DNA of 64,000 nucleotides, from positions 36,334,001-36,398,000 of the forward strand of contig CM097885.1 of NCBI GenBank assembly GCA_044892525.1, read 5' to 3'. The stretch is from Schmidtea polychroa. Its lineage: Eukaryota. The translations under genes and the position numbers were made by a program. Under the pieces are notes generated by a model. It did not search any database and was not told the DNA's origin. It saw only the letters and a list, made by a program, of their open reading frames with translations. Positions within the stretch are counted from its first letter, which is position 1. Each line of letters opens with the position of its first letter. Below are positions 13,096-44,598 of this stretch, piece by piece.

Positions 13096-14299
13096 TGTGA
13101 TTCAATTTGTTCACTCTTTAAATATTAAAATAAATACAATTGAAAAAGATTTAAAAATTCTAATTTTCAATTGAAAAGCAGGTTAATGGTCAATCTTCCA
13201 TGAAAAATATCTACTATAATAATCTTCAATTTAAATAAACTGAATAATTCTTAAAAAATCAAATATTATTTTATGAACAATTTTAATTTTGAAAAAATAT
13301 ATATAAAATATTGTTAGAAATTATTCTTAATTATGATTAATTTGATTACTTTAAACAAATTTATTTATTTTAAAAATATTTTTTTAACAGTAATACATAA
13401 CTTAATTTTATCAAAAAATAGGTACCTAGACGTTACAAATAAAATTTATTACACATAAATTTTAATTATCTTCTTGCTCTGGAATATAAGCAAAGTTATT
13501 CCTTAATAATCTTCTTAAACTATGTAAATATATATTTATTGTGCCAAAGTTCTAAAACTCACCACACCACCGAACAAGCTGTTGGGCCAGGAAGAATTAT
13601 TTTGTTTTAACGAAGAAACTAATTTTGTTTTTCTGTGTTCAAGTATAAATCTTTATTTTCTTAGAATGAGGACTTTCGCATTGGAAAATGTAATTATAAA
13701 ATAATCGGCCATTTAAACAATAAATAAATAATTAAATGAAAAAATATATATAATTAAAAAAGTAATCATGTAATAATTCAATTAGAAAACTCAAATAACT
13801 AGCACTTGCTAAATAAAATAAAAATAAAATAAAGAAAAAAAAACATAAAAATTTAAAAATAAAATAAAATTTCGCTAAATTACATACCCGCTTAATCCCT
13901 ATTGGATAAAGCATTGGTAAAAATAATATATATACGGCCATAAAATTGCATTTTTCAATGTTAATTCTTTTGCGAACTTAGATATTATTCGGGACTTCAC
14001 TTACTATTTCAGAAAACTGGCCAATTCGTAGGAACTTTCTTAAAACTTTATTTACAGGAATCATTTGGACAATCGGTAATAGTTTTATTGTAAATTTTTA
14101 GTTTTATTTGTGTTTATAATTGATGTTAAAGGATATGCTATTTGTAATATAATGAAAAATTAAAATTTTTAAAACCAATGCATTTCCTTTTCTCTCACAA
14201 CTGTATTTGATTAATGTAATAATCAGTAAAACCATAAAATGATAATTTAAGCCTTTTGCTGCAAATAATGTATTTAATGAAAGAATTTTCGACTATACG

Positions 14300-16080
14300 A
14301 TAGTCCTTGTCAATCTCCATTCAAAAAAACCATTCTCACATTTATTTATCGTATAATCGAATCAAGGATCATAAAATGTCTCACATCATATAGTTTTAGT
14401 CTCGATTTATGATTGAATTAATAATATTTGAATATTGCATTTTTTAATTTTTTGTGCTGAGGGATTCTAGGAGGTTTACGATGGATAAATACCTTGAGTA
14501 TTTACTTTGGTGGGGTCTTCGAGAGTCTCCGGTACCAGTCGGTTGGATCTGTCAGGCCCGGGTTCGTCACTGACAGCGTATTAGAACTAAAAATTTCATC
14601 TAGAGAAGAGTTGCAGGAATTGAGAGTTCATGATTCCACTGACCCGCATTAATTGTCATAAGCGGAACGATGTCGACGATTGACTTGTCAGAGATGGATG
14701 GATGAGCTCGATAGGCCATATTAGAAAATGAGATCGAATTATTATTATTTTCAAGAATAGCGGACGAGAGATTTCCAAGCGATAGTTTGAGGATAGTCAC
14801 AGACCAAAGATTTGTCATCTTCTCAATTCTTCGATAGTTGTGACATAAACTACAAGCGACAGGACCTAAGATAACTTCATCATCTGACGTCGATAGCATA
14901 CACTAGGATTGTATGCGTTCATTTAGTTAAAAGCCCAGCAAGAAATTCCCATAGAGAAAATTAAGAAATACGTTTGCTGTATAACCACTACAACACTAAA
15001 TTTCTCATAGTCCTATCAGACGATCATTCGATAAATTTTCCATCTCGAACATGGTATAGATAAAAATCCAACGTATTATTCGCATAAACACACGACATCG
15101 GCAACTCCAACATGACACCGGTTTTCGCAGAAATAATCGTTAACGTTGAGGTTCAGCGCGTCGCATCTACATGTTTATGACATGCGGAAAAGATGTAAAC
15201 ACCAGAAATGTCATGAAGTAATGTATCAGTCGCGAGAACGAGGTAGATTAGTAATAAACAATTGATTTTCACTGAATGTATTTCCAATGCCAATGTGGAG
15301 ATAACATCAACATCCGCCAGGCAGGATGCTATTTTTCTAAAGCCACGAATAATGAACAAAACCAAATGTTCACGGTTATATTTGCATTAGTGTCAATTAT
15401 TTCCTACTTTGAATAGGCTGTAACTCATCGAAGTCGATATATTCCTTTAATATTCCTTTCTGACTCCTCGATTCATCTTATAATTCTTTTCTTCTTTTAT
15501 TTTATTCCTCGAAATCATATCGTCTACATAAGGCTACTGCCGATTATGTCAATTTTGAGTTCCTTTATATATTCCCATAATCATTGTAATTGCCCCATTT
15601 TTTACCTAATTGGTTTTGACTTCTTTGGTTATCATTCCCTAATTAGCTATTTCTGTTGACCCTCTTCGTAATTCCCCTTCTTTTGTTTACCCTCGTTTAT
15701 CGGTTGTTTGGATAATTGCCCTCTGAATTCCTCGTTTGTTTACCCTTCCAAATTACTGTGCTCGGGTTTTCTTCATCACTCGGGTTCTCCATTGGCTCGG
15801 GTTTCCCATTAGCCAATTAATTAATTAATTAACATTTTACGTTTTCTCACATTTGTCTGTTTTACGACCCTTTCTAAATATTTTCTAACAATTTCTTGCT
15901 CACTGTCTTCTTCACCATTCCCTAATCTACCTCTCTCCGTTTTCCAGCTTCAATTTCAATAACTTTTCACTTTATTCCACTTCCTCAGGTTTGCGCATTT
16001 TTCCATTTCATGCCTGATTGTACCCTTTTATAGTTCTGTTTTTTTCATATCTTTCTTTGTCATTGGTTCTCTGCTTGACC
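14300..16080 (-). mobile_element. Heavily decayed Ty3/gypsy-like gag-pol relic
   Basis: Minus-strand fragments resemble the protease region (LEIHSVKINCLL) and the pre-RT linker (HRKPPRIPQH), with a purine-rich gag-like stretch upstream. No intact motifs or LTRs found. Confidence 0.35.
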
Positions 16081-16164
16081 GCCATTCAATTTCGGTTTTT
16101 CTTTTAATCCGAACTATATAATTTAATAATTTACTTTTAAAACCTCAACATTATTATAGGTGAA

Positions 16165-16560
16165 ATGGAAGGTGAATCGCAAAAAGGAAAGAATATGATA
16201 GTTATTAATGGTTACTTAATGATCAAAAAGAAATGCAGGAATGACTTTTTTTATTTGGAGTGTAAACATCAAAACCATTCAGCAAGAGGAAACAGGCTGA
16301 AGGCTTTTGTAAAGCACGGAAATCAACTGTATGCACAAATGGTCAACATACCTTAAGAAAGAACAGCGAGCATAACCATGCTCCAAAATCAACTGATACA
16401 ATTATTTCTGAAAAGTAACAATAATGAAAAGGATTGCTGCAATAATTCAAGAACAACCTGCTCAAATTATTCAAGCGGTTGCGTTCGAAATGAGTAATAT
16501 GGAATTGCATGAAATAAATGACATACCAAGAACTCAAAATAAAGTGGAGGGTTGGTGTTA
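16165..16560 (+). pseudogene. FLYWCH zinc-finger fragment, probably a MULE/Mutator transposase relic
   Basis: SQKGKNMIVINGYLMIKKKCRNDFFYLECKH, followed after a frameshift by SEHNHAP: FLYWCH pattern. Confidence 0.65.
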
Positions 16561-17083
16561 GAGCTGTCAATTTCCTATATTGTTCAGGATGTGCTATTTT
16601 TAATTATTGGTTATTTATTTATTTGATGATTCGTGCTGTGTAAGGAAAGTTGTAGAACCCAGCCGAGTCTCCTTTAAATGAAACTGTCTTGGGACAGCTG
16701 GGGTGAATGTATGTACTGAAAAATAAAAAAATACTTAATTAAAAATGAAAAGTAAAACCTTAGTTATTGGTTCTGTGGTATCCAATTATTGTATCTAATG
16801 GTTTTAGATTATCCGCTCGGATTTGAGTGGGTAAATAGTTTGATACAAGATTAGAATTTGTTTCCCGAACTTATTTTCCTAATAGTTTTGGTTGAGATTT
16901 CTTCTGGCTCTTTAGTTCGATTGACACTGGTTAGATACAAGATTATAATTTACATTCTAAACTTGTTTTCCGAATAGTTTAGGTTGAGTTTTGGCTTGAA
17001 ATAATAATTAACAATTTTTTTATGGATTTTTTTTTGTAATCCATTTTCTATAGAGATAATTTACTATGGTAAATTATCGCTAT

Positions 17084-18745
17084 TGTTGGTTACTTAGGGG
17101 TGTGTCCTTTTTACAATTTAAAATACGTTAGGGGTAATCATAATCGTTCGACTCTTTCCTAAGCACCTCCATGACTATTGCAATTTAAACCATTTGTGTA
17201 CCCATGGCGACGACCATGTTGGTACTGTACACAAAGGTGAAAAAACAATGAGCAGGTGAGCTCTATTACTAAAACTACTCCCCATTGGATTTTCTTTTCG
17301 GGTTCTAGACTGCCGATAGAAGGTCTTACATCCTTATTCACTATATATGCTATTTTTGGATCGATGTTGGTCCTCAATTACGGGTATTTTTAATTGTTCT
17401 CTTATAAAATTTTGTGCAGGGATCCGTCCTTATTTCCCAGCTAGTAATTATTGGTCTACACTTCCTACAATATTTAAATTATCCTTTGAAAAATTTGCGC
17501 AGGGATTGGCCCTTATTTTCAAGTTAATCCACACTTGCCATAATATTTAAATTGTTCTTCAAAGATTTTGAGCAGGGATCTGCCTGTGTTTCTAATCCTG
17601 AGCTGTCGGAAAAATTACATAAATCTAACTTTATCCATCTTCAACTGGTCTCAACTATTCCATCTTTACTCCTAACTCACTTATGTCTATAAAACATAAA
17701 GGCGACTAAGCCACCTACATCATCTAAATCTAAATAAAATCCTAAACGACCTAAAATGACATTACACTCCCAAATCATTCCTATCACTATCACTGTCCTC
17801 TAACTCGATGGACTCAACCGGCGAAATATCTGCCGACCAACAGCACGTAGTGCCGCCCGTCCACAAACTTTTCCCCAGCCCAGACCATCGACGCAATCAA
17901 CAAATAATATAATTGAATTCAATAAAAACTATGATTTAGAATAAATGAATTTAAACCATTAAAAAGGATCACTAAAGAAAATTTAACCGAAACATTAATA
18001 GCATATAAAATTTATTAATTAAAATACTCCATAAAAATTACAGAAAACAATAACAAATAAATTACCACATCCACGTTGGCATAAAATCGAAACTGAGAGT
18101 TCTGCAAATTAAGTGGCTATGTTGGAAAAAGTGAGAGAGTGTGTTTTTCAATTGAATTTGTGATCAGTATTTATACTGATTTTGAATGCGTACTCTATCC
18201 AATCAGAGTGCGAGAATTATTGAATTGATTTTGCACACATGCATGAATGTGTGTAATTATTTATTTGTTTTAATTTCATAAATTTAATTAATTTCTTATT
18301 TAATTTTTATTAATTTTAATTTTACAAATTTTATAATTTAACTAATTTGAGTTATATTAATTTTTATGAATTTAAACATTTTTATTCTTTAAATTTAATA
18401 AGTTAAATAACCATTTAATTCTATAAACTTTACAATATACATAATGCTAATTAATTTTATTATTTTTGACGATTTAATTTTTATATTGTTTAAATAATTT
18501 TCAACTAATTCCATTTTCTATTTTATTATTTTTCTATTTAAATTTTTAAGTGTTGAATTTTCTGTTAAATTTATTTATCTCTTTATTCTATTATACGGGG
18601 TTTATTGATTCTTAATGTGTAATGTAGTTTATTTTATTTATTTTAAATTAAACCTTGGTCATAAATTTTTTCAACTTTGCGGTTTTTGTGTTAGGTATTT
18701 TCGATCGATTAAAACAAACTCTCAGTTCTCGTTTTCAGCCCAACA
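17084..18745 (-). repeat. 3' LTR of the Gag-only element (1662 bp)
   Basis: Near-identical to 30040-31701; the ORF track shows the same two short ORFs at a 12956-bp offset. Confidence 0.95.
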
Positions 18746-19773
18746 AATCACTCCGGGACCCGTTAAAATTGCGTCCCGCAATTCTGTTAGACATATGAAT
18801 TTCCTAGGCCATAGTCTATTACATTCCCATTAACCTATAAACATACTATAATAGTTTAAGACATGTTAGAATTCAATTAGCAGAAAAAGGTCTAAGCTCA
18901 AATTCAAGCAGTTGCCACATACAGTGACTGGTCATAATACACATACATACTGATACAGTGTCCAAACTCAAGTACGAGTCATATGCAAAAGTTTTATTTC
19001 TGGATCAATTCTTCAGTTGGTTGTTTCTTATCTTTTCTGGGTTCGGTTTTCAATCTTTCGGCTGGGTTTTGTAGGCATGTTTGATTCCTGTTGTTGATTT
19101 TCATAATTAGCTCGTAATACTTACTGAAGATCATAGGATTCTCTCTATCGGGGTTTGACTGTTTTCCCATATTCTCTTTGGATTTTTAGGTTGGGATTCT
19201 GATTTTCTGGATCATTTGATGGTATTGACGGACCTTGCTCCAGGGTTTTCGGAACTTTTGTTCAACTGGGTGATTTGACACATTGATTTTTCTTTTGGTT
19301 TTTCTTGGTGGTTTTGTTTACGGTATTGCTCTTATTAAGGGGTTTTCTTCCTCTAGTGGGTAACTTGAATTATTTTCGATTTTGGTCTAAGTTCGCTTGA
19401 TTTGATTAAGTTTCTAATGTCACTGGGTCTGTGACTTTCGTCTCATTTATCAGGATCTTTTGCCGTTCTTTGTTTAGGGGTTCCAAATTAGGTATTATTT
19501 TTAGATATTCGTTTAACTCATTCTTTCTAGGTTTGCATCTTTATCTTTCTTCTGGATTTATATTCTTTCTTCTCATTTGAGCCTCTGTTCTCCTTTACCA
19601 TTGTAAGGGTTCAAATTTTGTATTTTTCCCAACTGATTACTTGATCCATTTCTATTTATACATCGATCTTTTGCCACATTATACATCAATTTATACCTAT
19701 ACATCTAGTACATTTAGTTTGCTATTTATACATCAATTTTTACATATGTTCACTTCCTTTTTACTATTTTCAT

Positions 19774-22335
19774 CTACACTTCCTCTTTAATTTCCACTAC
19801 ATCCTTTGGACTACCCTTCTGCTTTTCTTTGGCTGTCATCATTTGTGTCTCTTCTGCCATATCTTTACATTTTTCTTGATTACTCGTTATTTCATTGATT
19901 CTTAATTCGGCTGACCTTGCTTCTTCTTTTAGTCGGAGTATAGTTGTCTTGAGTACTTCATTTTCTCTTGTTCTGTTTTCTGCAACCTTTCTCCATATCA
20001 TTATCAATTCATCCTGTCTCGTTTCTTTTACAACTAGTTCCATTATTAACCTGCACTGTTCCACACATTGTCTCCTCAATTCCTCGTATGCGTTGGGTTT
20101 CACCTGTTCCTTCACGTCATTTGTCCGTCTCTGTACATTTGTCGACTGTTGTTTTATTAGCATTGGAGATTGGTGTTTTCTAATTTCTGGCTGATAAATT
20201 CTGTTTTCGACATATTTTTTATTGTTCTGTTCTGTGACGTATTCTCGTGACTGATCTCTCACTGGGTTTGTCCCATTCGGACAGTTATTGACTAAATGTC
20301 CAGTTCTTTTACATTCGTAACACCTCTTTATGCGGCGATATTTATTTTTTCTGTGCTCATTTTTCTGATAATTTCCATACGTCTTATCGAAGAACCGATA
20401 GCGCTCATTGTGTCCTTGTGGTTGGTATTTGTTCCAGTAATTGTTTGTACTCGCGTCCCATTCGATATCTGGTTCGCACCCGCTTTCAATTTTTAACGTG
20501 TTTATGTCAAGGTACTTTTCTTGCGTTTTTTCATTATTTCGTTTTTCGTGATTTTCGCCATTCTTCGATTCGCGCTTTTCCGGGATTACTGCAATTCCAA
20601 CCTGACTATCGATGCCGGTATAATCTCTCTGATTGTCCTCAAATGTTTTGATGTTTTGATGGTCTAATATTACCTGTTCCAGTTTTTCAATTATTTCGCT
20701 TTCGATCCTTGAGTCCGGAATTTTTTGTAAATCTATTTCGTTGCTCGTTATCATTCTCATCATATTGATTTGTATTACTCTTTTTTGTTCTCTTTCCCAT
20801 ATTCCTTTTATCTTTTCCCTCTGGTTGTCGTTGGTGGTTAGTCTCATTATATCCAATTTTAAAAGTTCTTCCTTTCTCGTTCTCCAATATTTTTCTTCTC
20901 TTCTTGCCTGAGGTTCTTTTCGTTTACTCCATCTTTCTTCCGCTTCTCGTGCTTCCGCGATCTGTAAGGTATTCCATTCTCGTTGTTGTTTTGTTCGGAT
21001 ATTTTGAATTTGTAATGTGCCTCCCACACATTGTAATACATTTATTCTTGATTGTTGTTTTCCTTCCGCTTGAAACTGATAATCGATCATGTTACTGCAC
21101 AGTCCTGTGAGAATTGTTATTTGATTTTGCATTTCAGCTAGTTGCTTTGCTGACGTATCCCTATTGTCACTCCGTTGTTGGTTTCTTTTATTCGTACATG
21201 CAACTGCTAGATGGTCTCCTTGTCCGCACGAGAAACATTTTTTGGATACTCCACATCTTACTGCGGTATGTCCTTTCTTACCGCAATTCCAACATCTTCT
21301 TTGCCCATGACATTCATCGAGCCAGTGTCCTTGCCTCTTGCAGTTATTACAAAACTTTCCAATGTTTCCATTATTCGACCTCTTGCTTTTGTTGTCATTT
21401 TCGTTTCTTCGATTATTGTTGTTATGACTCCACTGTCTGTGGTGCTGGGGTTGATTATCTGCGATAGGCCTCCTACTTGGTGGTTGTGTTACTTTGGTAT
21501 ACATTTCGCTTACATTCGCTGCCTCTACTGCTTCGTCCAGCGTCTTGCAGATTTTGCATCCGACTACACCTTTAATGTCATCTCGTCGCAATCCTTTTAC
21601 AAATTGGGTTACTAGTTGTGTTTCCATATCCTTTTCACTGAACAGCGGTTTGGCTAGACGTCTTAGTGCGCTGGCGTAAAGTATATTTGATTCATTCACT
21701 GCTTGTCCTCGATTGAAGAATTCTAGAAATTTGTATTGTGCATCTTTTGCTTCTCCAAATGTTTTTATCAGAGCTTCCTTAATTTCTTTCCAGGTTTTTA
21801 GTGGGGTTGTACACTCTTTTATTCCGACGTACCAATTAAACGCGTCATCTGCTAGATATAGTGGGAGTCTTCTCACTATCATTTCGTTTGTCCATTTTAG
21901 AGCATCGCAATAAGATTCAAAATGTTGGATAAAGTTTGATAGTTTGTTCGGTTTTCCGTCGTATTTTTCGCCATTATATTTTCCCTGGAAATTGGGTATC
22001 TCCATTTCACTGAGTCTCTTGTTGATCGCTTCCATTTGGGCTGTTGTATCTACCATCTCTAATTGTATTCTTTTTCCGTTTGTCTTTTCTTTTATTAGGT
22101 TTATGTCACTTTTATTATTTCTGTTTTCAGATAGAGTTTTTCCTTCCTGAGGTTCTGATACGCGTATTACGCTTCTTGGCCTATTGTTTTCGAAATCCTT
22201 TTCACTGCTTCCTTTTATGGATCGACCTTTGGTCTTTGAGATGTCTTTTTGATTTTGCTTTTCGATTTCTTGTGCTTGCGTGGGTTTAATAGTTCGTCTT
22301 CCTTTCTTTGCAACTTTTAATTCTTCTTCTTTCAA
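19774..22335 (-). CDS. Retrotransposon Gag-like protein (capsid-like region + four CCHC zinc knuckles + coiled-coil tail); first ATG at 22056
   Basis: KYDGKPNKLSNFIQHFE..W...LPLYLADDAFNWY...W..IK..L...F (gag capsid pattern). Knuckles CNNCKRQGHWLDEC, CWNCGKKGHTAVRC, CFSCGQGDHLAVAC and a distant CYECKRTGHLVNNC. Confidence 0.88.
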   Translation of the reverse strand: MKEEELKVAKKGRRTIKPTQAQEIEKQNQKDISKTKGRSIKGSSEKDFENNRPRSVIRVSEPQEGKTLSENRNNKSDINLIKEKTNGKRIQLEMVDTTAQMEAINKRLSEMEIPNFQGKYNGEKYDGKPNKLSNFIQHFESYCDALKWTNEMIVRRLPLYLADDAFNWYVGIKECTTPLKTWKEIKEALIKTFGEAKDAQYKFLEFFNRGQAVNESNILYASALRRLAKPLFSEKDMETQLVTQFVKGLRRDDIKGVVGCKICKTLDEAVEAANVSEMYTKVTQPPSRRPIADNQPQHHRQWSHNNNNRRNENDNKSKRSNNGNIGKFCNNCKRQGHWLDECHGQRRCWNCGKKGHTAVRCGVSKKCFSCGQGDHLAVACTNKRNQQRSDNRDTSAKQLAEMQNQITILTGLCSNMIDYQFQAEGKQQSRINVLQCVGGTLQIQNIRTKQQREWNTLQIAEAREAEERWSKRKEPQARREEKYWRTRKEELLKLDIMRLTTNDNQREKIKGIWEREQKRVIQINMMRMITSNEIDLQKIPDSRIESEIIEKLEQVILDHQNIKTFEDNQRDYTGIDSQVGIAVIPEKRESKNGENHEKRNNEKTQEKYLDINTLKIESGCEPDIEWDASTNNYWNKYQPQGHNERYRFFDKTYGNYQKNEHRKNKYRRIKRCYECKRTGHLVNNCPNGTNPVRDQSREYVTEQNNKKYVENRIYQPEIRKHQSPMLIKQQSTNVQRRTNDVKEQVKPNAYEELRRQCVEQCRLIMELVVKETRQDELIMIWRKVAENRTRENEVLKTTILRLKEEARSAELRINEITSNQEKCKDMAEETQMMTAKEKQKGSPKDVVEIKEEV

Positions 22336-23294
22336 TAAACTTGGTTCTATTATTAACTGTTTTGATCTGGTATGCTTTGTTATTGGTTCAATATTTCCGA
22401 ACTTGGCTTAATTGTTTGACAATAACTTCTAGTTGGTTGCTGATACTTGGCTGTTGGCTTGATTGATTGATTTACCTGAATAGAAAAATATCACTTCTCC
22501 CTATCGTTTATTATATTTATAAATTGTAATATATATATTATATAGTGCAATTGCAATATTTTTACTTTGGTTTCTTTGGGTGCCGGCATATCTTAATATT
22601 CATTTCGTCGTTAGTTTTGTTTACACATTGGTTCTCAAATTCCTACGTAATTTTTTCGATCCTTCTTATTTAATTCACACTCCTTTTCTTCGTTTCTATA
22701 GTTTTCTCTACTTTAACTGTCTTTTTTCCTTGGCTTATCTCTATCTATTGACTTACATTACTTGTATTCTTGTTTCTATCTTAGTTTTCTTCATTGATGT
22801 AGTCTTTATTCTGTTCATGTTTGTTTCCGATTTTTATAATTTCCTCCGTTTACCTTATTGGTCGTCCTTTATATCTCTCTTTTTCCATTATCGTTACCAA
22901 TTTTTAGACTTATTTATTATTCTTGACTCGGTTCTCCATTATTCATTCTATATTCTCATCTATTCTCCTACACGGTTGTCTATTTTCAATTCGTTTTTCG
23001 TCTTTTTCCTTCACGATCTTATTTATTTTCAGTTATATATCTGTCAATGACTTCGGCTGTATTCTCATTTATATTCCCGTCTATGTTTCTTTCTAGGTAC
23101 TCATCTATATTTACGTCTGTTATTTCCGTTTATTATTCGTAGTTATTATTCTCGTTTATATTCGCGTCTATGTTTCTTTCCAGGTACTCATCTATATTCT
23201 CGTTTATCTTTCCTTTTACATTCTCGTCTATATTCACGTCTGTTATTTCCGTTCCTATTCGTAGCCATTATTCTCATTTATATTCGTATCTCTT

Positions 23295-23554
23295 ATTCGC
23301 ATCTATTATTTGCATCTATTATTCGCATCTATTATTCGCATCTATTATTCGCATCTATTATTCGCATCTATTATTCGCATCTATTATTCGCATCTATTAT
23401 TCGCATCTATTATTCGCATCTATTATTCGCATCTATTATTCGCATCTATTATTCGCATCTATTATTCGCATCTATTATTCGCATCTATTATTCGCATCTA
23501 TTATTCGCATCTATTATTCGCATCTATTATTCGCATCTATTATTCGCACCTATT
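23295..23554. repeat. 13-bp minisatellite (ATTCGCATCTATT) x20 inside the LTR element
   Basis: Direct reading. Near-perfect units; degenerate copies extend left to ~23060. Confidence 0.95.
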
Positions 23555-26500
23555 ATTCGTCTACTGGTTATCTTATGAATTTAGTCTTTAAGCTCTAATT
23601 GTTTCTCTTTACTTCGCTTTGTCTTTTTCCAGTTACTTGGTCTTCCTTTTTTTTCTCCTGCATGCTTCTTTTTACTACTGTTCCAGGTTTTCCCCACTCT
23701 CCTGACTCTGGATGCGAAACACTCGCACTGGTCGATCTCCGATCGTGTGGTGATCAGTCACACGCAGAGATGTTCCAGTATATGCGATGGGCCCTGTTCC
23801 ACATCTTTCGCCAGAACAGTTGGTACTTTCCTGGTCTTATCCGTACTACGCTGAGCGTAGCTCATAGGTTGTGGATGTCCTAAATCCTAACAGAAAAAAT
23901 TTCCTTATTCATTTGCTCTCAATTTTCGTAATACTTTATTCTCATTTTTACGTCGTGCTCTTAATCTACTTATCTCGATTACTCTTGGTCCTTCTTCATT
24001 ATTCTAAATATATCCACGTCTCTTGTCTAGTTAACGTCTTATTGCTATCGCTTTTACTCTTACCGCTTTGGTTGACTTGTTTCTCGTTAATATGCTCACT
24101 TTTTCCTCAGGCAGATCCCTCTCGTATTACTCGTAATATTAGTTTCTCCATTTTATTCGTTACCCTTCTATTCGTTAATGGTTTATTTACGAAACATCCC
24201 TGCTCAATTTTGTAATTTATCGCTTCCGTATTTGTATATTTTCCTCAGCTTTGATTTTTTTTTTTTTTTTTTTTTTTTTAATGTGACCTCTCACTGATTT
24301 CCCCGTCATAATGTTTCTCATTTCGTATATTTTACTTTTTCAAAATTTGTTTGTTGTTTTTCTGTTTATGGGCCTCGTTGTTCCACTCCCTGTATTTTAT
24401 ATTTTTACTTATTTCCGCATCTATTTGCTATTTTACTTTTGGCGCGTAACTTTGATTGGTCATTTATTTTCATTATCTCATTTAATTGTTTATCTATGTC
24501 TACATATACACGCATATACTTATACATATACCCTTATCCATAAACATATATTCATATACATATATCCACCTATATCTGGATATCTACATCTGTACGCATT
24601 TCTCCCTAGCTGTTCCCGGAGTGGTTGATATTATTGTTTCTATTATTTCTGAATTTATTCAAATTTATCATTGAAATTCCCACGATTGTATCTTTTTGTT
24701 TCGTAATAAAAGTAGACAGTCCGTTCGTTTTTCATTATTGTAACTTTTTGCTCCATAGTAAAAGTAGGCAGTATGTTCGTTTTCCATAACTAAAACTTTT
24801 GTTCAATGTTTCTAATTGGTCTCATTTTTGTTAGTGTCTCTTGTTATTCTAATTTTCCGTGTCATGATGTTAAGCTTTCACTTTTGTTCTATTATATTGT
24901 ATCGCGTTTCATTTTATATTTGTTGTTTCTCGTAATTTTGATTTTTCATTCAAATGTCTTTGACCTTGCTTTCTTTCTGTGAATTTGTTACTTATTGTTT
25001 CCTGTTTGTTCATTTTGTTTTGTGTTTTCCTTGTCATTTTTATCGTGTTTATTTATTCACATTCTATTTTGATATATGTGCGCTCTTCATTTTCTGTCAA
25101 TCATGTTTTTGTATAATTTTTCCCGATTGTTCCTATTATTGCTCATGTCCATTTTGACTTTCATATTGGTCTCCCGTTTGTTGTTATCTTAGTTTGTAGT
25201 TTGTTCTCATTTTCCTCCGCGTCTTCGCCAAATGTCGTCCCCGACATTCATTATTTGATTTATTTATTATCTTGTGTTCTCTCGGTTCTCACTATTTTGT
25301 TCTCGTGTCCTCTCTACAATATTTGCCAAACGTCCATTTCTCTGATTGATTTTCCTTACTCTTAAATAAGCGTAGATTTTGATGTTTTGATTTTTCGCAT
25401 TATTTTATCTTTGTTTATGGTGATCGGTCCTCTACTTTTATTATATATCATTTTGGTTGGGGTGTATATACCGATATATGCAATTTTTTATATACGATTA
25501 GTCCTCTTTTTGGCACTCAGTTCTGCCATTACCATCTCTTTTCGATGTTATGACCATACTAATAGTTCGTTGTGTTTTTCTCCTTTACGCAAAATACAGA
25601 TACCGCTTCTGCTCATTCCCCCTCCCTCTCGGAATAGTTTACTCATCATCTTATAACAATTTTCAATGAATACTATGCTGGATTTATTGAACTATTTGTA
25701 CTTCATCTTCAGCTCCCGGCATTTTCCTTTTCCCGTTTCCTTTTCCCGTCTGATATTCTCCGTTACATTCTGACCATATCTTTCTCTCTTTGTTTTCCTA
25801 AGCTTTCTTAGTAGTTCATTTCTTGCATTTGGCTTTATCATTAGAGTTGTTCTATTTCTCTTTACCTTAGTTCAATTTTTCCTCTCTGGTCCTTGATTAT
25901 TCTCTCACGACCAAATTCGTTGTTCAAATTTTCGATTAGATTGTTCCTCCATGAGATTCCTTGCTTCTGTGTAGCTAATGTTATTTACGATAATATGACG
26001 CCTTTCTGCTTCCATATTTCTCCTGTGGCGGTATTGGGATTGATTTCCGTTGTGATCCGTTTCATTCTATTAATTCGCCTACATTGATTCCTAATCTTTT
26101 ATCTGAATTTTACTACATTTTATTTCCCAAAGTTATATACTAATTATACCGCGCTGATATATATATATATATACATATACACACATACACACACATATAT
26201 ACATATATATACACATATATATATACATATATATATTTTTATATAATCATATACCTTTATATATTCATTGTTCACACTATATATAGTCATCACCCTTTCT
26301 ATGTATGTGGGTTCGTAATTCGTGATACTTTCTAGATCTCTCCCCACTGTTCTTAGTTTAGTGTTCTGTACTCTTTCATTTACTGTATATTTCACCCGTC
26401 TGGTTCTAATTGTTTCCAATGCTCTATCGTTGACGTTGGATAATTTTTCATACTTCTTTCCGGTTATTAATATGAGCATCGTACGTATAACTGTCTTGTA

Positions 26501-29500
26501 TATTCATATTACTTTGGCTAACCTTAGGCTTCCTGGTTTCTTTCGCTGGATCATTTGTCGATATCCACCACGTTATTCCGGTGTCTTGTGTATTTATTTT
26601 CATTAATTTCTGTATTTATTTTGTTAACTTCCTGAGCCGTTCTACATAAATTTTTAAAATTCATTTTCTACATATCCATTGATGTCTGTGATGTTCGCCT
26701 ATTTTGCAACGTTGTCCAGTCACTTTTAATTTAGTTCTTGTGCCTTTGACACGGGGATTTTCGATTTTCTTCTGCTCACCTTTATACTGTGATTGTTATT
26801 GATGGAGTATTCGCGATTGTCATTAGTTCAGTTCTCAAACAGTTTTTCTTTTCATTTGTCTTGCAGCCACGTTCGGTTCTTACTTTCATTCATTTACTTA
26901 ACGCTTTTATTTATTCTATGTTGATGACAAGTAGCTATCAGTATACCAATGATGTTTCGATGCCTTTCATTGTATTTACTTCCTAGTCTCCTTTCATAGA
27001 TTTTGTTGCCCCGCTCGGTTTCGCTCGATCTACAAAGCTCTTGGTATGTTTCTTTCTCCAGTACGGTGTTCACTCGGAAGAATGGGCGGGCACTATCCTT
27101 TTCACAATATTACTCATTCTGAATTAGCATTTGCAGAAGCATTCGTTTTGTTTGATATTCGGTGTTTTATTATTTGTTGTGCTTTGCTATATTTGAATGT
27201 TCGTTTAATTATCTTTTGCTGTTCCTATTTCCCATTTTACCACAATGTATTTTGACATCTTTGGATACTATTCCCGATTTACCGATGGATAAAGAAGGTA
27301 ATGTGATGTGGTCAGCACCAAAATCATTCCCTTTCAAACTCTAACGCTATATTCATGTCACTCAAACAACCCCATACCTGCCTTTCCAGACGCATTCAAT
27401 ACTTACACCGAGTTACAATAGACAATCATCCCATCTTCATTTTCTTATACATCACTCTATCCATCTACCAATTTACTACTTCGGAAAAATCTTTTGAAAA
27501 TTAATTATCACCAATTCAGAAATATTTATTACCAAACTATTAGCACAATTTTCGAATACAAATTTTAATTTATTTTATTAACCATTAATTCTAATTAGTC
27601 TTCCTATTTATTAATTAACAGTTTGTTAAATACTTACTCAAAACAAACGCATTCAATTTCAATCCAAAATGCATATACTAAGATGTACTAATCAGACGAA
27701 TTTAGTTATCCTGCGCAATGTCAAAACCAACGATTGGGATCCGCCAACTCTGAAACTCGATGACATAACCTAACACAACACCATAAAAGTACCTTAGGAA
27801 GCAACCTGATAACTCCCTGTGTTGGCACTATTCACCATTAACATTCGACAAATTATTGACACAAATATTATTAAGCACACAAACAACCAATCCTCAGTTA
27901 CACCCGAACCAAACCGTCATTCAATCATGCGATCATTCATAACAAATTTAGCAGAAAAGAATTTTATATTTCCTTTTATCAACATTAACCTAACTTACTT
28001 ATTCCATCATAACTAAAATTCCAATTTTTGAATTGATAAAAATCCAACCGAACCGAAATTCATTTTTATTCCATTCTTTTGATCCTATAGTCAGTGATAC
28101 ACGCATACATTATCCTTTTGATACGCACATTTTTGAATATTTTAACCAAGAACCTCCTCATCTACCCCTAAATCCAGAATATCAGAAAACATACTGACTA
28201 TCCACGCATTGATGGATTTGATTAGGGAAAAATTCAAATGGATATTCATTGATGGTTTTCATGTAAGATTTGATAGTCGCTCAAAGTTTTATTCGACATC
28301 GACAAAAACAACGAAACGAACCGAGAGAAATTACAATGAATCGAAGAACTAATCAAATTTCCAGCATCATTTTCAAAAGTAAATATTCGAATCATTATTC
28401 CAATTGATAGACATGTTAACATCAATAAAAACAAATTCCATTTTCGTTTTGTAAATCTCATAAAATTTCAATTTCATCTGAACACTACAGCAATCATCCA
28501 AATGCAAAATACGACGACCGCTCTGCGATTCATAAATAATCAATCAATGAAATTTGTTGAGAAAGCCGCTGAAGTAGCAAGCCTGTTCCGGTTGTGTTGC
28601 TGTTCACATAACACTAGCCGACAGTTCTTTGATCGACACATCAAACGGACCGCCTACTTGATTGACAGATAAATTGGCGCCGCTCTTGAGTGGTCTCTCA
28701 ATCAAACCGAAAATCTGCTCATTGACTCTATGAGAAAATTTACAAATTGGACTTGTTGTGACAAATTGTGACAGGTCATGTCACACAAATTCGCACACTT
28801 ACACACATTATGTCACCGCTGATGCGAAAACGTGTTGCTCAACAATTTATTTGATTGAATTTTTAATATATGACATTGTTTAATTTTTAGAAACATCTGA
28901 CAACGCCACCAGCCACGCAGCAACAGCCGAACGCATTTTCATCAAGTGAGTTGAATAATGTCACAGAAAATGATAATGATACAAAATCAACAGCTGTATC
29001 TGGATAATTTAAAATGCGAGTGAACATGAAATAAATTTAATAAAGTTAAATTATGAATTTCTTGTTTTATTCACACTTAATCGATAAAATTTGCACAAAT
29101 TTTGAATTGAAAACTAATAGATTTCTGTCATTAATGCTTCAAATACCACAAGGACAATTTTCATATGCTCATTAGACAACCAAAGAGAAAACCTTCTACA
29201 AAAATGAAAGAAAAAAAAATACACCAGTAGAGTTACTCTCTACTTTCTATGTTTGTTGGTGGAATTATTATAATGCGCATATTTCCGAATTCTACTATTT
29301 GTACGTTATTGTTGAATTTTTTGGATTATGACATTATCTGTGTGGTCAATTCAATAACCATCATGCTCGCTCAGTGATACGTATTATTTTCTCTCGGCTT
29401 CTCATATCTCTCTCTGGCTAACTAAGAATTATTCGTCCTCATTCTCATCATTCGGACACTCGTATTTTTCCTAATGGAGTAAAATCGTTATGCCTTCGGC

Positions 29501-30014
29501 AGAACAGAAAAATTTCCAAGTCTCACATCAATATTTGGACTTAGGCGGTCTCCCTATGAGCACCCTCACTGAACTGCTGATCGAACTATGAAATAGTATC
29601 TGGACTATCGGGTACAAGGGCGGAATTCCTCTTTACCCTGGACCAGCATACCACTCAGGCGAGGTAATAAATCTTAATAAATATAAATTGTTAAGGTGTA
29701 ATACAATAAATGATTTCTATTTCATGTCTTCCTACTTTAAATAAAAATTTGTTAATTTAATTTAATAAACTCGGTAGGAGAAAGAAAATAATTTACTCAA
29801 AAACATTTAATGATACATTACAAATATAGCTATATTAAATCATAGATAATTAACACATATGTACAGCAAAAATTAAAATTAATGATTTCCCACTAATAAG
29901 CTTTAGAGTAGTTTGGCTGGCTACTAAAATGTTATGATTGATACTGATACTAAATTCGAATTCCGTGAATCGATTTATCAAAATAAATTCTTGAACAATG
30001 TTTGAAATAGAGAA

Positions 30015-30032
30015 ATCCCGGCTGAGCCCCCA
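30015..30032 (-). promoter_or_regulatory. Primer-binding site, tRNA-Pro type
   Basis: Minus strand reads TGGGGGCTCAGCCGGGAT, a 16/18 match to the classical tRNA-Pro PBS TGGGGGCTCGTCCGGGAT, located 7 nt inside the 5' LTR end. Confidence 0.85.
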
Positions 30033-30039
30033 AAAATCA

Positions 30040-31701
30040 TGTTGGTTACTTAGGGGTGTGTCCTTTTTACAATTTAAAATACGTTAGGGGTAATCATAAT
30101 CGTTCGACTCTTTCCTAAGCACCTCCATGACTATTGCAATTTAAACCATTTGTGTACCCATGGCGACGACCATGTTGGTACTGTACACAAAGGTGAAAAA
30201 ACAATGAGCAGGTGAGCTCTATTACTAAAACTACTCCCCATTGGATTTTCTTTTCGGGTTCTAGACTGCCGATAGAAGGTCTTACGTCCTTATTCACTAT
30301 ATATGCTATTTTTGGATCGATGTTGGTCCTCAATTACGGGTATTTTTAATTGTTCTCTTATAAAATTTTGTGCAGGGATCCGTCCTTATTTCCCAGCTAG
30401 TAATTATTGGTCTACACTTCCTACAATATTTAAATTATCCTTTGAAAAATTTGCGCAGGGATTGGCCCTTATTTTCAAGTTAATCCACACTTGCCATAAT
30501 ATTTAAATTGTTCTTCAAAGATTTTGAGCAGGGATCTGCCTGTGTTTCTAATCCTGAGCTGTCGGAAAAATTACATAAATCTAACTTTATCCATCTTCAA
30601 CTGGTCTCAACTATTCCATCTTTACTCCTAACTCACTTATGTCTATAAAACATAAAGGCGACTAAGCCACCTACATCATCTAAATCTAAATAAAATCCTA
30701 AACGACCTAAAATGACATTACACTCCCAAATCATTCCTATCACTATCACTGTCCTCTAACTCGATGGACTCAACCGGCGAAATATCTGCCGACCAACAGC
30801 ACGTAGTGCCGCCCGTCCACAAACTTTTCCCCAGCCCAGACCATCGACGCAATCAACAAATAATATAATTGAATTCAATAAAAACTATGATTTAGAATAA
30901 ATGAATTTAAACCATTAAAAAGGATCACTAAAGAAAATTTAACCGAAACATTAATAGCATATAAAATTTATTAATTAAAATACTCCATAAAAATTACAGA
31001 AAACAATAACAAATAAATTACCACATCCACGTTGGCATAAAATCGAAACTGAGAGTTCTGCAAATTAAGTGGCTATGTTGGAAAAAGTGAGAGAGTGTGT
31101 TTTTCAATTGAATTTGTGATCAGTATTTATACTGATTTTGAATGCGTACTCTATCCAATCAGAGTGCGAGAATTATTGAATTGATTTTGCACACATGCAT
31201 GAATGTGTGTAATTATTTATTTGTTTTAATTTCATAAATTTAATTAATTTCTTATTTAATTTTTATTAATTTTAATTTTACAAATTTTATAATTTAACTA
31301 ATTTGAGTTATATTAATTTTTATGAATTTAAACATTTTTATTCTTTAAATTTAATAAGTTAAATAACCATTTAATTCTATAAACTTTACAATATACATAA
31401 TGCTAATTAATTTTATTATTTTTGACGATTTAATTTTTATATTGTTTAAATAATTTTCAACTAATTCCATTTTCTATTTTATTATTTTTCTATTTAAATT
31501 TTTAAGTGTTGAATTTTCTGTTAAATTTATTTATCTCTTTATTCTATTATACGGGGTTTATTGATTCTTAATGTGTAATGTAGTTTATTTTATTTATTTT
31601 AAATTAAACCTTGGTCATAAATTTTTTCAACTTTGCGGTTTTTGTGTTAGGTATTTTCGATCGATTAAAACAAACTCTCAGTTCTCGTTTTCAGCCCAAC
31701 A
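30040..31701 (-). repeat. 5' LTR of the Gag-only element (1662 bp)
   Basis: Adjacent to the PBS, TG..CA ends, near-identical to 17084-18745. Confidence 0.95.
31119..31160 (-). promoter_or_regulatory. Candidate LTR promoter: TATAAATA box with nearby CCAAT element
   Basis: Minus-strand TATAAATA at 31124-31131 and CCAAT about 25 nt upstream. Both are retained in the diverged LTR at ~47720-47775. Confidence 0.5.
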
Positions 31702-34322
31702 CTATATAGTTTTTTTTTTCAAAAAAAAAGGATAAAAAACCTTCTCCACGTGCAACGTGCAGAATTGTTGTTTACATGTAATTAAAAAAACCAACAAATA
31801 AAACAAAATAAAATATAACAATACATTACAGTTGGCACCAAAGATGACAAATATTGGTTAGAAAAAACCATCCTGGTGTTAGAAGACGGAAGAACATTAA
31901 AAATTTTGAAACTTAAATATTACATAATAGGAACAAATGAATACAGAATAAATATACTTGTGAACAATAATCACTAAAATTTATGTGATGAATGATATAA
32001 CATTATTATATCGTGATAATAACTAATATTGTGATTATTAACAATTTGAATGTGAAACTGGAATTATATATTTTGTTTTATTGATTTATTGTTATAAACG
32101 TTATATTTTAATAGAAAGTAATATTGCTGTTGTTGTGATTGTTATGACTAATCTGATCATTATGATCTTTAGGGTCTAAAACAGTGTTTCCCAAAAAATG
32201 TTGGTACTGCGTATAACTTTGATCGTTTTCATTATATAATGTACCCCTTTGCTTAAAAATTTTATATAATGATTAATTTTTTTTATAATATCTTTTTTCA
32301 AATATACGACCTTTAAATTAATAGCATTAATGAAAAATTAAATACTTTTATAACTGAAATATTGTAAAATAAAAAATACTATATTTAATTTATTGTAATT
32401 AATGAGAAGGATGAAATTGCTTATGCTGAGATAATAATAATAAATCTAAAAACATATTTTTTCTGGTTAATATCTAAAATTAAAGTTGAAAAGGAATTAT
32501 TATGAAACAGTTGGTTTAAATTTAAATAAAGATTAAATTTATAAAATAATTCTAAAAATAAATTTAAAACCAAGCGATTTACATTTTAATTACATTTATA
32601 AAAAAAAGATTTAATTTATGCTTTGATTTTTAAACTTCGTTTATATTAAAAAATATATTATTGATTCGAAAATATAATCAATAAATAAAAAACAAGATTA
32701 TATTTATATTTTTCTGTATTAATAAAATTTTAATAAGACATTTTAATCTAATTAAATTTTTTTATTTATCTTTTAATATTTAGATAATCATATATAAATC
32801 CAACAATTGGCGCCAGTACTAAGTGCACTATGTTTACTTTAAAAAGAAAATTTAATGTTTTTAATTTATTTAAAATTTTTAGTTTAAAAATAAATTTTTT
32901 TAAATTTTATATCTGATAATACTGCCATTCAAATAATTAGAAATATAACGGGAAATTCAGAATTAATCTTTCAACCAAACGTGAATTAATAATATGATAA
33001 TAAAAGTACAATTTTATAAATGCTGTAAAACAAATTGCAATGAGACTTATAGATATGACAAATTAGAAAAAACTAAGAATTTCAGCTAAAAACAACCCCC
33101 CTTATTAATGATAAATTTCAAAATTATAATTGATTATTTATCATAAAGATACTAATCGAATGCAATGAAAATTATTTTAACATTGTTCAAATCAAAATAT
33201 AGTTTGAATCTTTTATTGAATTATTAGGGATAGTTATTGCTTAATTGTTTTAGATCAATGACAAACAAAATACATTAAAGATGCTGGCTGGATAAAGGGA
33301 TAATTCCAAAAATAGTAACAATTAAAATCTGCACTTTTAAAACAGAAATTCTATTGACTTCAACAGAAGAGTGTATTGACATTTGAAATGGAGTGTCAAC
33401 AGGGATTTTATATATAAGTCGACTGATTTCTCAGTCAAACCACCCAAAAATAAAAGCTTCTAAGAAGAATTGCAAATTCAGAAATTGATATTGCAATATA
33501 ATTTAGAGCACACCTATTTATACATCGGAGCTCAGGTGATTGTTAATATTATATAAGTTGTAATTGTGATAACCAAATAAAATTTATTGAACCAGTGTTT
33601 GTGTTCTTATTTTTATAGGAACCATCAAGTTGAGAATATTCTACATAATTAAGCAGTTAAGAATCTAAGTTGCAGACACCTTAATAAATAATAAGTTGGT
33701 GTCTTTTGTTGACACCTTGGTCTAGGGGAAATCCTCGAACCCAACATCACTTGTGAGTCTAGAACCATCGAATATCGATTCTGGATTGGGAACCCAACAT
33801 TACCAATTATCGAAAGAATAGTAAAACTTTCAACATTTATTTGGATAGGGTATATCCAAAGGTTTAGCGCGTAATAAAGTGTTTATTTACATTAATGCTT
33901 GTCACAAATATGCAGTCAATTGAAAACTATAACTATAAACAATGAAAAATAAGTCTATATGATGCGTTTCTATCTAGACGTTCAATAATTAGAGATCACA
34001 TTTTACAGACGATCACTTGCTTACGTTTGTTGGGTTTTAAAATAAGTTGGAATGTGCAAATCAATAAAAAAATCAAAATGACATATTCCGAGTTGGAAAT
34101 TTGCATGTACGGATAGCGAGCGCTAAGTCGTTGATTTTGAAGAGTGTAATCGATAACTTTGTATCAACATTTGTTAATATTTAATAAAGTGTTTTGTGTT
34201 GAAATAAAGAGCACGAGAAATCAGAATCAGTATCGACTTTAACAGTAATAATCCAACATTTCCAACGTTGCTTAGCGTCGAATAGTCAACAGTAACACCC
34301 AATCTGTATTTAAAGACCAAAA

Positions 34323-37300
34323 TTAATCTAAATCGTTTGGTGATGTAATTTTCTTCCAATTACTCAAAAAGGTTTCCGAAAGTTTCGACACGATGTTCAC
34401 CTCGATTACCAGATCTGGCCTCAAGCGGAATCTAGAAACGAGATTTAAATTAGAAAAAAGGTGCAAATTAATTACTGTTTCATTTTAATTAAATCTCGAA
34501 TGGGCGACCTCAAGTTAAACCTCACCATTTCTTCATAGGCATTTTCATAGAAGGCCTGGAAATGAATGGAGTCGTTAATATTTTATTTATTGAAAGGAAA
34601 TGAACTTCTAGAGCCAAATGTAGATCTGGAGTGAATAATATATAATGGCCATTGGAATCCCAATCGACAGATTTCTCACGGGGAGAAAATATGGATGACA
34701 TGCAATCATAAATCCTGTAATGATAATGTGAATTTTTATTTATTGTAATTATTCATGGTTTAAAAAATGCTATTTGAGAAATAAGACAAATCAATAAATT
34801 TCAAAAATCGATAAATTAAAAAGAACAATGAAATTAATATAAATCAATAACTAGATGAGAAATAGAGAAGCAATAATTAATTTTATATAATCAATAATTA
34901 GTTGTAATTTCGAAACTCAATAAAATTAAAAAAATCTATAAATTAAAATGATAATGGGGAAATCAATTTAAAAAATCAATAACTAATTGAGAAATAGACT
35001 TTCAAAAAATGGCAATTAAAATAACTAATTGAGATAATTTAAATTAAAAAATCAATAATTAGATGAGAAATAGAAAAGCAATAATTAATTAGGGAATAAC
35101 AGAGAAATCGATAAATTTTAATAATCAATAAATAATTGTAAAATCAATATTGAAAATCAATTGAAATAATTGAAAATCAATAAAATTAAAAAAATCTATA
35201 AATTAAAATGATAACGGGGAAATCAATTAAAAAAAGCAATAACTATTTTAGAAATAGGCTTTCGAAAAAAATGGCAATTAAAATAACTAATTGACATAAT
35301 AATTTAAATTAAAAAACCAATAAATAGATGAGAAATAGAATATTAATTAATTTTAAAAATCGGTAAAGAACAATGAATAAATAATTAATTAGGAAATAAA
35401 AGAAAATCGATAAATTTCAATAATTGTAAAAACGATAATCAATAAAATTTTAAAATCTATAAATTAAAGATGATATGCAATCATTTTAAAACCTATTGAT
35501 GGTAAAAAAATTCTATTTCAGAAATAAGAGAACTCAATAAATTTAGTAAATCGATAACCAGGTGAGAAATCAAGAAAAATCTATTATCAATTAGGAAATA
35601 ACTGAGAAATCGAAAAATTATTATAATCAATAATTAGTTGTGAAATCGAAAATAAATAAAATTAAAAAATCTATAAATTAAACTGATAACGGTGAAATCA
35701 ATTAAAAAATCGATAACTAGCTGATAAATAGAAAAAACGGTAAATTAAAATAACTTATTGAGAAATAATAGGAAAATTAATAAATATAAAAAATCGATAA
35801 ATTAAATGTGACAGTAAAATTAATTAATCAGTTAATTAAAGCAATCCAAATCGATAATCTGGTTATTGATCTTCCTAAAGTTTTATTATTGATTTAATGG
35901 CAATCACTCGTGTAGAAATATAATGAAGAAAAGAAAGAAACATACGATGCGGTTTCAACGACATCTTGAAGGAAATCTGTCTGTCCATGTTCAGGGTATA
36001 AAATCAGAACATTAAAATGTATAAGATTATCTTTGTCAATGAATGCTTGAGATGTATGCTGCATAGGAATTTCAACAGATATCATTTTTCCATCAACAAC
36101 AACACCACGCTTCATCAATGTGTCCTCAATGACCATTGTTACTCGTGATTTCAACTGCATCTTTTCACACTTCATTTTTTCCATCTAAATCATTTATTTA
36201 CGTCGTTCATTGGATTTATGAATCAAACCTTTCTTTCTGTGAATTTCTCTTGTAATGAAATCAAATCTTTGTTATCGGGGCAAATCTAAATGGCAAATTT
36301 TCATGGGAGAGTTGGAAATTATGCTTTACACACAGAACATTATTGTTATATTATAAATGACATTTGTTCAATGTAAATATCTCGATTAGTAGAAATAGTC
36401 TCATAATAATTGGCATTTTCTTCAATAAAGATTTGATATCAATTATTCTGGTATTTTAAATTAACAGTTATTGAAAGGGACACTCCATATTCTTTAATAT
36501 TAAAAAATTTGAGATAAGCTCAAAAAAAGAAATTCTACGCACTCCTATTATCAAGTGATTTTGATTTGGGAAATATCTCCAAAATATTTTATCGATTCAT
36601 GTGCGCACTGAGAGGGGAGAGATTTTGCCTGCCTCTAAGTAGAATGAATCTTTCACTGAATGCTCAGAAGTAAAACTGTCAATAATACAAGACAAATAAT
36701 GTTTCCCAGGTAATTATCAAATTGAAGTGATAATAATACAGCCATCAGAGGTTCTAACAAAATCTATTGACAAAAATCAGGATGAAGGGTTGTTCGCAAT
36801 TTGTTATAATAGATTCAAATAGAATTTTCGAGATTACTGTAACGAATTGTAATGAATTCACTTGAAATAGGCAGTACCAAAAATACGTGAATATCAAAAA
36901 ACATCGATATATTACTGATTCATATTCGTCAAGCTCTTTTTAATAAATTCATTCCTTAACATTAACAACATTTTCTAAATATTTCGAAGTATTTGAGTTG
37001 AACTAAATATTTTTTGAGAAATTCTCTTTTCTTCGCGTTGACCTATATATATTTTTTGACTTGACATACATATTTTTTCTAAATATTTCCAAGAACTGAA
37101 CTACATAAATTTCTTTGTCTTCGCGTTGACTTACATATTTTTTCAAAAAATTTTGAGTTGACCTACATTAGTGGATATTTTAACAAATTCTGACCTACAT
37201 TTTGTAGGTTCTTAGTTGACCTACATATTTTTTTTCAAATACTTCTAAGCATTTAAACTGAACTACATAAATTTCTGTCTTCGCGTTGACTTACATATTT

Positions 37301-43600: not shown

Positions 43601-44118
43601 GATGAAGATTATTTTGTATTTAATTGCTATTATTTTTATGTGTTGTTAGTTGATTGTTGGTACTTGGTATCTGGTTGATAGTATTTTGCTGATAGTCTTC
43701 GTATCTTGTTGTAAGTACTTAACTGATAGCGTTTGGTATATTGTTGTAAGTACTTGGTATCTAGTTGAAAATACGTGTTTATAGTTACTGGTAAATGATA
43801 TTTAGTTGTTGGTATCTTGTACTTGGTAGTTGGTGCGATGTTGTTAGTATCTAGTTGTAGGTTGATATTTGTTAATTTCTCGATGGGTTTTGATGTTGGT
43901 TGTAAGTACTTGGTATCTAGTTGTTAGCTGGTTGTTAGTACTTAGTAGCTAGTTAATGGGTAGGTGGGGGGATTGAGAGTTAGCAATACCCTTACGACCA
44001 GTACCCTTACGACTAATACCCTTACGACTAGTACCTTTAGGACTAGTACCTTTACGACCAGTACCCTTATGACCAGTACCCTTAGGGGGTCAAAACATCC
44101 TGTCGGATAAACTCAGAG
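40604..44118. mobile_element. Unclassified 3.5-kb non-coding TIR element inserted at TA(TATA)
   Basis: Perfect 18-bp TIR CTCTGAGTTTATCCGACA at both ends, extending imperfectly to ~42 bp, with TATATA flanks. About seven 15-bp subterminal repeats (AGTACCCTTACGACC) at ~43985-44085 and inverted copies near the left end. No ORF of 60 aa or more. Confidence 0.8.
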
Positions 44119-44559: not shown

Positions 44560-44598
44560 TTATTATTATTATTATTTTTATTAATATTATTATTATTA

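Follow-up and report, generated by a model that had tools for sequence, protein, structure and literature searches.

Long terminal repeat (LTR) retrotransposons lacking pol have been described from plants and animals. According to PMC4350172, the TR-GAGs of plants are under 4 kb long and have a 5-bp target-site duplication (TSD) and a polypurine tract (PPT), TR-GAG1 encoding a Gag of 433 aa, and PMC13570524 reports 28 GAG/PROT-only families in sugar beet. The ERVL-MaLR elements (MaLRs) of placental mammals are presented in PMC11359688 and PMC6466679 as gag-homologous, pol-less, env-less and non-autonomous, and one copy is predicted to keep an open reading frame (ORF) of 464 aa. LARDs, as PMC13570524 and PMC6431247 define them, exceed 4 kb and are non-autonomous, with a non-coding interior. 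In planarians, Burro/GYPSM1 is more than 30 kb long, and its polyprotein of 4,873 aa contains env-like, protease (PR), reverse transcriptase (RT), RNase H (RH), integrase (IN) and cargo domains; AIR1/Smc-like regions come after the two or three CCHC knuckles of its Gag, and the presence of internal tandem repeats is also reported (PMC6431247). Here, we analyzed a stretch of 64,000 nucleotides from the planarian Schmidtea polychroa (GCA_044892525.1, contig CM097885.1, positions 36,334,001 to 36,398,000; hereafter, the window), which contains a 14,618-bp LTR element with gag as its sole long frame. We put at about two in three the probability that this element is a young copy of a multi-copy Ty3/Gypsy-type family that encodes only an extended Gag, likely borrowing PR, RT and IN and likely supplying its own capsid.

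Limits, age and coding content of the element

The element occupies positions 17084-31701 of the window and is read on the minus strand. Its LTRs, each 1662 bp long and bounded by TGTTGG...CCAACA (5′ LTR, 30040..31701; 3′ LTR, 17084..18745; both minus strand), align with one mismatch in 1662 positions (A17330/G30286), a divergence of 0.06% (95% interval 0.002-0.33%), and copies of the TSD CTAT lie directly outside them at 17080..17083 and 31702..31705. Three hallmarks of LTR retrotransposons, namely paired TG...CA repeats, a TSD (here 4 bp) and a primer-binding site (PBS), are present, and a fourth, the PPT, is not evident. A preliminary description of this DNA had listed the 1662-bp LTRs with a single difference, the intact CTAT duplication, a PBS, one long gag frame and an 11.3-kb interior free of PR, RT, RNase H and integrase motifs, and had proposed recent movement. 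Our alignments and searches bear out all of these points, and with LTRs identical at 1661 of 1662 positions and a 4-bp TSD, the insertion is very young. The GC content of the window is 22-39%, and CpG is mostly not depleted.

Nineteen public sequencing runs were listed (13 containing part of 19774-29700; five studies), and the contigs of four of them (X1, X5, X7, and X8) were compared with the window over 11800-23050. In X7, contigs matching the left flank up to 17083 continue past the TSD with right-flank-like letters, which is the pattern expected of an empty site; because the flank is itself repetitive, they may instead represent a paralogous site. These data bear on whether the assembly collapsed or chimerically joined repeats, placing near-identical LTRs around an unrelated interior. 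The region is repeat-rich, its flanks are repeats, and no listed contig covers the whole stretch. However, the TSDs match, the PBS is located by the expected LTR end and shares its strand with gag, X7 shows the empty-site-like continuation, and an X7 contig, which comes from another study, connects the leader with the gag frame (22370-22638). Such an artefact is therefore very improbable.

The Gag frame, the only long one, lies at the 3′ end of the interior (19774..22407, minus strand) and is open for 877 codons from stop to stop, as against 163 codons for the longest frame among 1000 shuffles. An ATG-less head of 117 codons (aa 1-117) precedes the first in-frame ATG at codon 118 (Met118, 22056) and is followed by a capsid core (~aa 140-303), three adjacent CCHC knuckles (aa 353, 372, and 391), two IN[VM][LM] motifs (aa 455 and 547) and a charged extension leading to a fourth CCHC knuckle at aa 696. 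All four knuckles have full CCHC spacing, and Pfam zf-CCHC matched Gag at E 1.4e-9. An AlphaFold model of aa 118-459 had a mean predicted local distance difference test score of 62.8, with 70-87 in the helical core, and in Foldseek the core matched dArc1 best (E 2.3e-5), followed by dArc2, Arc and the Ty3 capsid (E 1.3e-3), retroviral capsids scoring lower. The core is thus predicted to fold as a two-lobed capsid of the Ty3/Arc type, as expected of a Ty3/Gypsy element, and relatives of this Gag match Retrotrans_gag. An Arc-like fold would also suit a Gag that the host retains for use as a dominant-negative or signalling capsid, in the manner of Fv1 or Arc, and not for the spread of the element, though the fold is expected of any Ty3/Gypsy Gag. 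Domesticated gags are single-copy and old. This gag, however, sits in a very young insertion into a repeat, between intact LTRs, and its family is multi-copy and varies between samples, leaving host retention scarcely credible.

A protein search over 1.84 billion representatives returned 912 matches, 12 of them at E<=1e-30. One of these 12 (P0002) is a knuckle repeat only, and the other close relatives are unnamed UniParc entries resembling gene models over repeats. Even the nearest relatives show no more than 45-50% identity, suggestive of an old lineage. Since P0003, P0004, and P0151 share 39-50% identity with our Gag across the knuckles and 180 residues beyond them, the extension up to ~aa 585 is a family trait. 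Beyond it, aa 586-877 showed marginal or no similarity to relatives (2 to 178 of 300 shuffles reached the score; 5/300 in a second test). This 292-codon tail without a close relative nevertheless stays open, for which the chance by base composition is ~1e-9. A word-based protein search with a 760-aa frame gave 0/7999 candidates, and the ESM Atlas gave no lead for aa 440-877 (best score 0.86). At the other end, the ATG-less head is open over its 117 codons with a chance of 3e-4 by composition, and it resembles relatives only marginally (in seven tests, 24 to 446 of 1000 shuffles reached the score). The capsid core starts 22 residues after Met118; in all 18 scorable relatives (of 19 tried, which are mutually close), a Met is found 19-27 residues before the core with a Met-free stretch ahead of it. 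Upstream of the frame, a frameshifted match to the N-terminal part of relatives lacked significance and was rejected (in nine tests, 16 to 936 of 1000 shuffles reached the score).

The relatives also indicate what the family may have lost. P0153 has a retroviral protease after a related Gag and P0009 an integrase zinc finger, both being fragmentary gene models; the lost pol therefore lay downstream of gag, where only 1 kb remains. In both proteins, a post-knuckle QQQRIN segment precedes protease sequence. The IN[VM][LM] motif, found twice in our Gag (2/5000 shuffles reach that), occurs four times in P0158 and three times in P0152 (0/5000), and judging from its sequence and recurrence it is likely a protease site. 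Three scanned gene models of the related Gag family (P0011, P0155, and P0164) start with a common segment bearing a RING finger (C3HC4), which in that family may be an accessory ORF located upstream.

Trace of pol was sought throughout the interior. With stops read as X, the six whole interior frames gave zf-CCHC only in Pfam, and 30 shorter pieces, taken from minus-strand frames in the leader and the 3′ untranslated region (UTR) and from plus-strand frames of 27200-30039, gave nothing under E 0.1 and three matches at E 0.18-0.48, none retroelement-related. Outside the gag frame, no convincing match came from tblastn with 153 fetched proteins or, in a second round, with 170, a set that contained pol-bearing proteins: the best match on the leader, UTR or LTR (E 0.005) was a 27-residue match to the N-terminal part of a Gag, of which ~0.85 are expected from 170 queries, and the best control reached 0.052. 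This test has power, since distant pols among the same proteins matched another pol fragment in the window at E 1e-43 to 7e-4. Custom profiles reached at best E 0.19 for PR and 1.4 for RT-RH-IN on the element; the positive control of the latter was circular, its control protein being part of the profile, and tblastn with distant pols is the valid control. Known catalytic motifs were absent from all six frames.

The same absence would follow if an autonomous family possesses this gag and the present copy alone lost pol, during reverse transcription or after insertion. Relatives that join a related Gag to PR and IN fit this account, a deletion could explain the seemingly missing PPT, and run depth would be unchanged if other copies held pol between gag and the UTR. 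However, gag terminates at a stop of its own, and neither a protease start nor a pol stump flanks it; no loose contig end lies near the gag end among the 24 listed (2019 further ones exist); and variant rows run on both sides of the gag end in all four runs. Furthermore, there was little time for a later deletion because the LTRs are only 0.06% apart. We consider a one-off loss quite unlikely.

Leader, cis signals and predicted expression of gag

The PBS is of the tRNA-Pro type and lies 7 nt inside the 5′ LTR end (30015..30032, minus strand); nine of its nucleotides presumably correspond to tRNA-Pro. The other nine, which come first, are the conserved PBS-Pro start quoted in PMC10602909. No tRNA gene was found within the window. 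In the 5′ LTR, a CCAAT-like box (31159), a TATA-like box (31132) and a splice-donor-like G/GTAATT (31021), all on the minus strand, are putative promoter and splicing signals. Between the PBS and gag extends a non-coding leader of ~7.6 kb (22408..30014, minus strand), AT-balanced in its first 2.8 kb and A-rich thereafter, which contains 13-bp and 123-bp tandem arrays (23064-23559), an A25 run (24255-24279) and an AT microsatellite (26157-26264). Minus-strand stop counts in 600-nt windows of the leader are near expectation, with no stop-depleted frame; Pfam gave no match below E 0.1 in the leader, and a custom profile detected no decayed RING ORF there (best E 0.21, control 0.29). Rfam returned four matches on 16500-32500, all of them microRNA models on AT microsatellites and below the gathering score.

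The ~9 kb between the TATA-like box and Met118 contain 223 ATGs, so that production of Gag depends on splicing, on a promoter within the element or on entry of ribosomes at an internal site. A motif scan found two candidate acceptors on the minus strand, a strong splice-acceptor-like site with a pyrimidine tract and TAG at 29196..29220 and another just 5′ of the gag frame at 22476..22488. The closest relative, P0004, has a 14-residue match spanning the latter (10/14 identical, E 0.041; best control E 0.052). In X8, a run that is only guessed to be RNA, depth is 31-71 over gag and 5.8 and 2.4 upstream; this drop was not counted as evidence, as contigs cannot rank the parts of a gene.

The lack of a canonical translation route, with 9 kb of ATG-rich sequence ahead of Met118 and two stops past the acceptor-like site, is what would be seen if gag were a passenger. 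In that case, a helper Gag would package the RNA of a non-autonomous family, as for LARDs or ETn, and the frame would be open merely because pol was lost recently. It also agrees with this that transcription is at most conjectural, X8 being just guessed to be RNA, and that the C-terminal part of gag is ~4% different among X7 copies. On the other side, 877 codons are open, including the 292-codon tail; the capsid side is ~10x more conserved than the remainder in X7; the CCHC spacing is complete in all four knuckles; and the low identity of the nearest relatives (45-50%) points to an old lineage. A passenger gag is thus unlikely, if marginally less so than a one-off loss of pol.

The 3′ UTR between the gag stop and the 3′ LTR is 1.03 kb long (18746..19773, minus strand) and has no pol trace. 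The last bases before the 3′ LTR (18746-18760, minus strand) include TCCCGG, the complement of CCGGGA in the PBS region (30015-30039), and TGATT adjoins the LTR at both interior ends. These ends are possibly tied to the missing PPT, or they arose by chance.

Parts of the element in sequencing runs

Contig depth does not equal copy number, and the depth figures given here are rough. Relative to a host contig of X5, two gag contigs that carry 2-3 differences reach 37-38x the depth, an LTR contig 106x and one 3′ UTR contig 154x. In X1, the summed gag depth is ~700-1400x that of the flank, a figure inflated by overlapping contigs; X1 shows no differences from the host flank and is possibly the source of the window, so that it is not independent. 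The 3′ UTR is ~4x as deep as gag in X5 and X7, and the two have similar depths in X1. This suggests that sibling elements with a common 3′ end but another gag exist, and a helper should therefore be sought among them.

The X7 contig that joins the leader to gag covers the first 38 letters of the frame, and a leader variant shorter by 277 bp occurs in both X5 and X7, which together make the 3′ end of the leader a family feature. In X7, capsid-side contigs differ from the element at 3/846 letters vs 64/1527 for the rest of gag (P 1e-9), and differences amount to 11/404 in the leader and 6/329 in the LTR; the capsid-side conservation could stem from recombination between subfamilies. Five of the nine listed gag variants are synonymous (2.3 expected, P 0.046). 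Taken together, gag, the 3′ UTR and the LTR form a multi-copy family in which the capsid part is best conserved, significantly so in X7 and not in X5.

Proposed mobilization and relation to described systems

Integration of an LTR element with a TSD requires RT and IN, and the enzymes therefore came in trans or were lost afterwards. We favor supply in trans to a family that encodes only Gag. In the mechanism we propose, the family would go back to an ancestor with Gag-Pol that lost all sequence separating the Gag extension from the 3′ UTR. Gag would be translated from spliced or internally started RNA, and the full-length RNA, primed by tRNA-Pro, would be packaged by this Gag in mixed particles with a helper Gag-Pol. 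The helper protease would cut Gag at the IN[VM][LM] motifs, and an autonomous relative would provide RT and integrase.

Several observations weigh against this interpretation. On the side of expression, two in-frame stops (22431 and 22410) separate the acceptor-like site at 22476 from the open gag frame, and no LTR-to-gag splice joint was seen among the 15 joints listed (118 further ones exist). No clear PPT adjoins the 3′ LTR, the nearest 15-mer with >=14 purines being at 19038, ~280 nt away. As to selection on the capsid, the X5 contigs of the capsid side do not significantly exceed host DNA in conservation (5/656 vs 11/726, P 0.22), and the synonymous excess comes from nine rows of a table with 478 more. 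The multi-copy evidence covers gag, the 3′ UTR and the LTR as parts, not whole copies, and depth cannot separate pol-less copies from pol-bearing ones with identical gag and UTR. No listed contig bridges the gag stop by the required 31 letters on each side; one crosses it, reaching 21 letters past it. Finally, no helper was found: a search among long polyproteins with the Gag alignment gave 0/2116 and no relative of 2355-5000 aa, itself weak evidence. A metagenome scan was uninformative, with one of 144 candidate stretches matching at 29% identity on a 1.5-kb contig. The preliminary description had proposed a parasite that supplies its own capsid and borrows enzymes. The youth of the insertion, the lack of pol, the predicted capsid fold and the multi-copy nature of the family uphold this proposal in part, but do not extend to the pol-lessness of other copies or to a helper.

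The nearest described analogues are the TR-GAGs and the GAG/PROT-only families of sugar beet, which share with our element LTRs, a PBS, a single gag frame, absence of enzymes, signs of recent movement and a helper yet to be identified. Like a TR-GAG, it has one gag frame and no PR, IN, RT or RH. In contrast to the TR-GAGs, it is 14.6 kb long and not under 4 kb, has a 4-bp TSD and no clear PPT, and combines a 7.6-kb leader with a Gag about twice as long (877 codons); failing the TR-GAG definition in size, TSD and PPT, it therefore works like a TR-GAG without being one. The novelty that the preliminary description implied for an animal was overstated, because mammalian MaLRs are already gag-homologous, pol-less and non-autonomous. 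With the MaLRs, the element shares an animal host, non-autonomy and a gag without pol or env. Unlike MaLRs, which come from ERV-L retroviruses, it has a Ty3/Arc-like Gag and Gypsy-type relatives, placing it outside that group. MaLR LTRs and leaders are also far shorter. It resembles the LARDs in exceeding 4 kb, in being non-autonomous and in having a long non-coding stretch, and is set apart from them by its 877-codon Gag frame. No description of a gag-only Gypsy family in an invertebrate was found in our literature searches, and Repbase, Grohme 2018, and the supplements of PMC11410931 or of a Dugesia preprint may list the family.

Among planarian elements, Burro offers the closest likeness in Gag architecture: three CCHC knuckles (aa 353, 372, and 391 here) followed by a long charged extension, with internal tandem repeats and a very AT-rich host in both cases. 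In contrast to Burro, with its size and polyprotein, our element is 14.6 kb long and lacks env-like, PR, RT, RH, IN and cargo domains. To judge by published descriptions, it possibly descends from Burro-like planarian elements. On a more specific scenario, which we hold to be speculative and on balance rather improbable, the family would be a self-packaging satellite of Burro-like planarian proviruses that kept the 3′ end and protease sites of its helper, expressed a four-knuckle Gag by splicing (intron ~8.5 kb) and underwent a recent burst in one host lineage.

Other features of the window are as follows. A small Gypsy element (48497-50761, minus strand) has 168-bp LTRs (AGT...ACT, two differences), a 5-bp TSD (TAGAC) and a 662-codon frame with the RT end, RNase H and integrase only; gag, protease and most of RT are missing, and it may be a mirror case, an integrase-only non-autonomous copy. 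It was rejected as a helper or ancestor because it is bounded by LTRs and a TSD of its own and does not match the interior of the 14.6-kb element (best E 0.52). A diverged LTR at ~47200-48391 (minus strand), 65-83% identical to the LTR of the element in local matches, has in common with it the 5′ end, the CCAAT/TATA blocks and the donor-like site; it merges into tandem arrays (46146-47072), and we did not locate its second end. Large degenerate tandem arrays with TACCAAC/ACAAC-like units (minus strand) alternate with AT-rich arrays over 43500-46750. Two overlapping frames of 427 and 472 aa (54607-57266, minus strand) appear by eye to be one frameshifted hAT transposase. To the left of the element, a C-terminal exon of phosphoacetylglucosamine mutase (1617-2114, plus strand; Pfam AMG1_III and PGM_PMM_IV) and two very high-copy flank repeats (14056-14431 and 15560-16311), deeper than the LTR of the element in the runs compared, were found. 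On the right, a multi-exon gene (~34300-39000, minus strand), which by eye we take to encode a TTC4/Cns1-like TPR protein, ends ~2.6 kb before the element.

No new mechanism of transposition is indicated by these results. Gag-only parasites are a known kind, and it is the size and layout of this element, mainly the long non-coding leader before its sole gene, that are unusual. If it were a satellite of Burro-like proviruses, it would provide a natural two-component system showing what a private Gag buys a non-autonomous animal element. More generally, the family exemplifies a class of large elements that would escape annotation based on pol, and as a young and abundant invertebrate family with a conserved capsid, protease-type sites that are still present and a 3′ UTR in common with siblings of higher abundance, it could serve to test why gag-only elements keep Gag.

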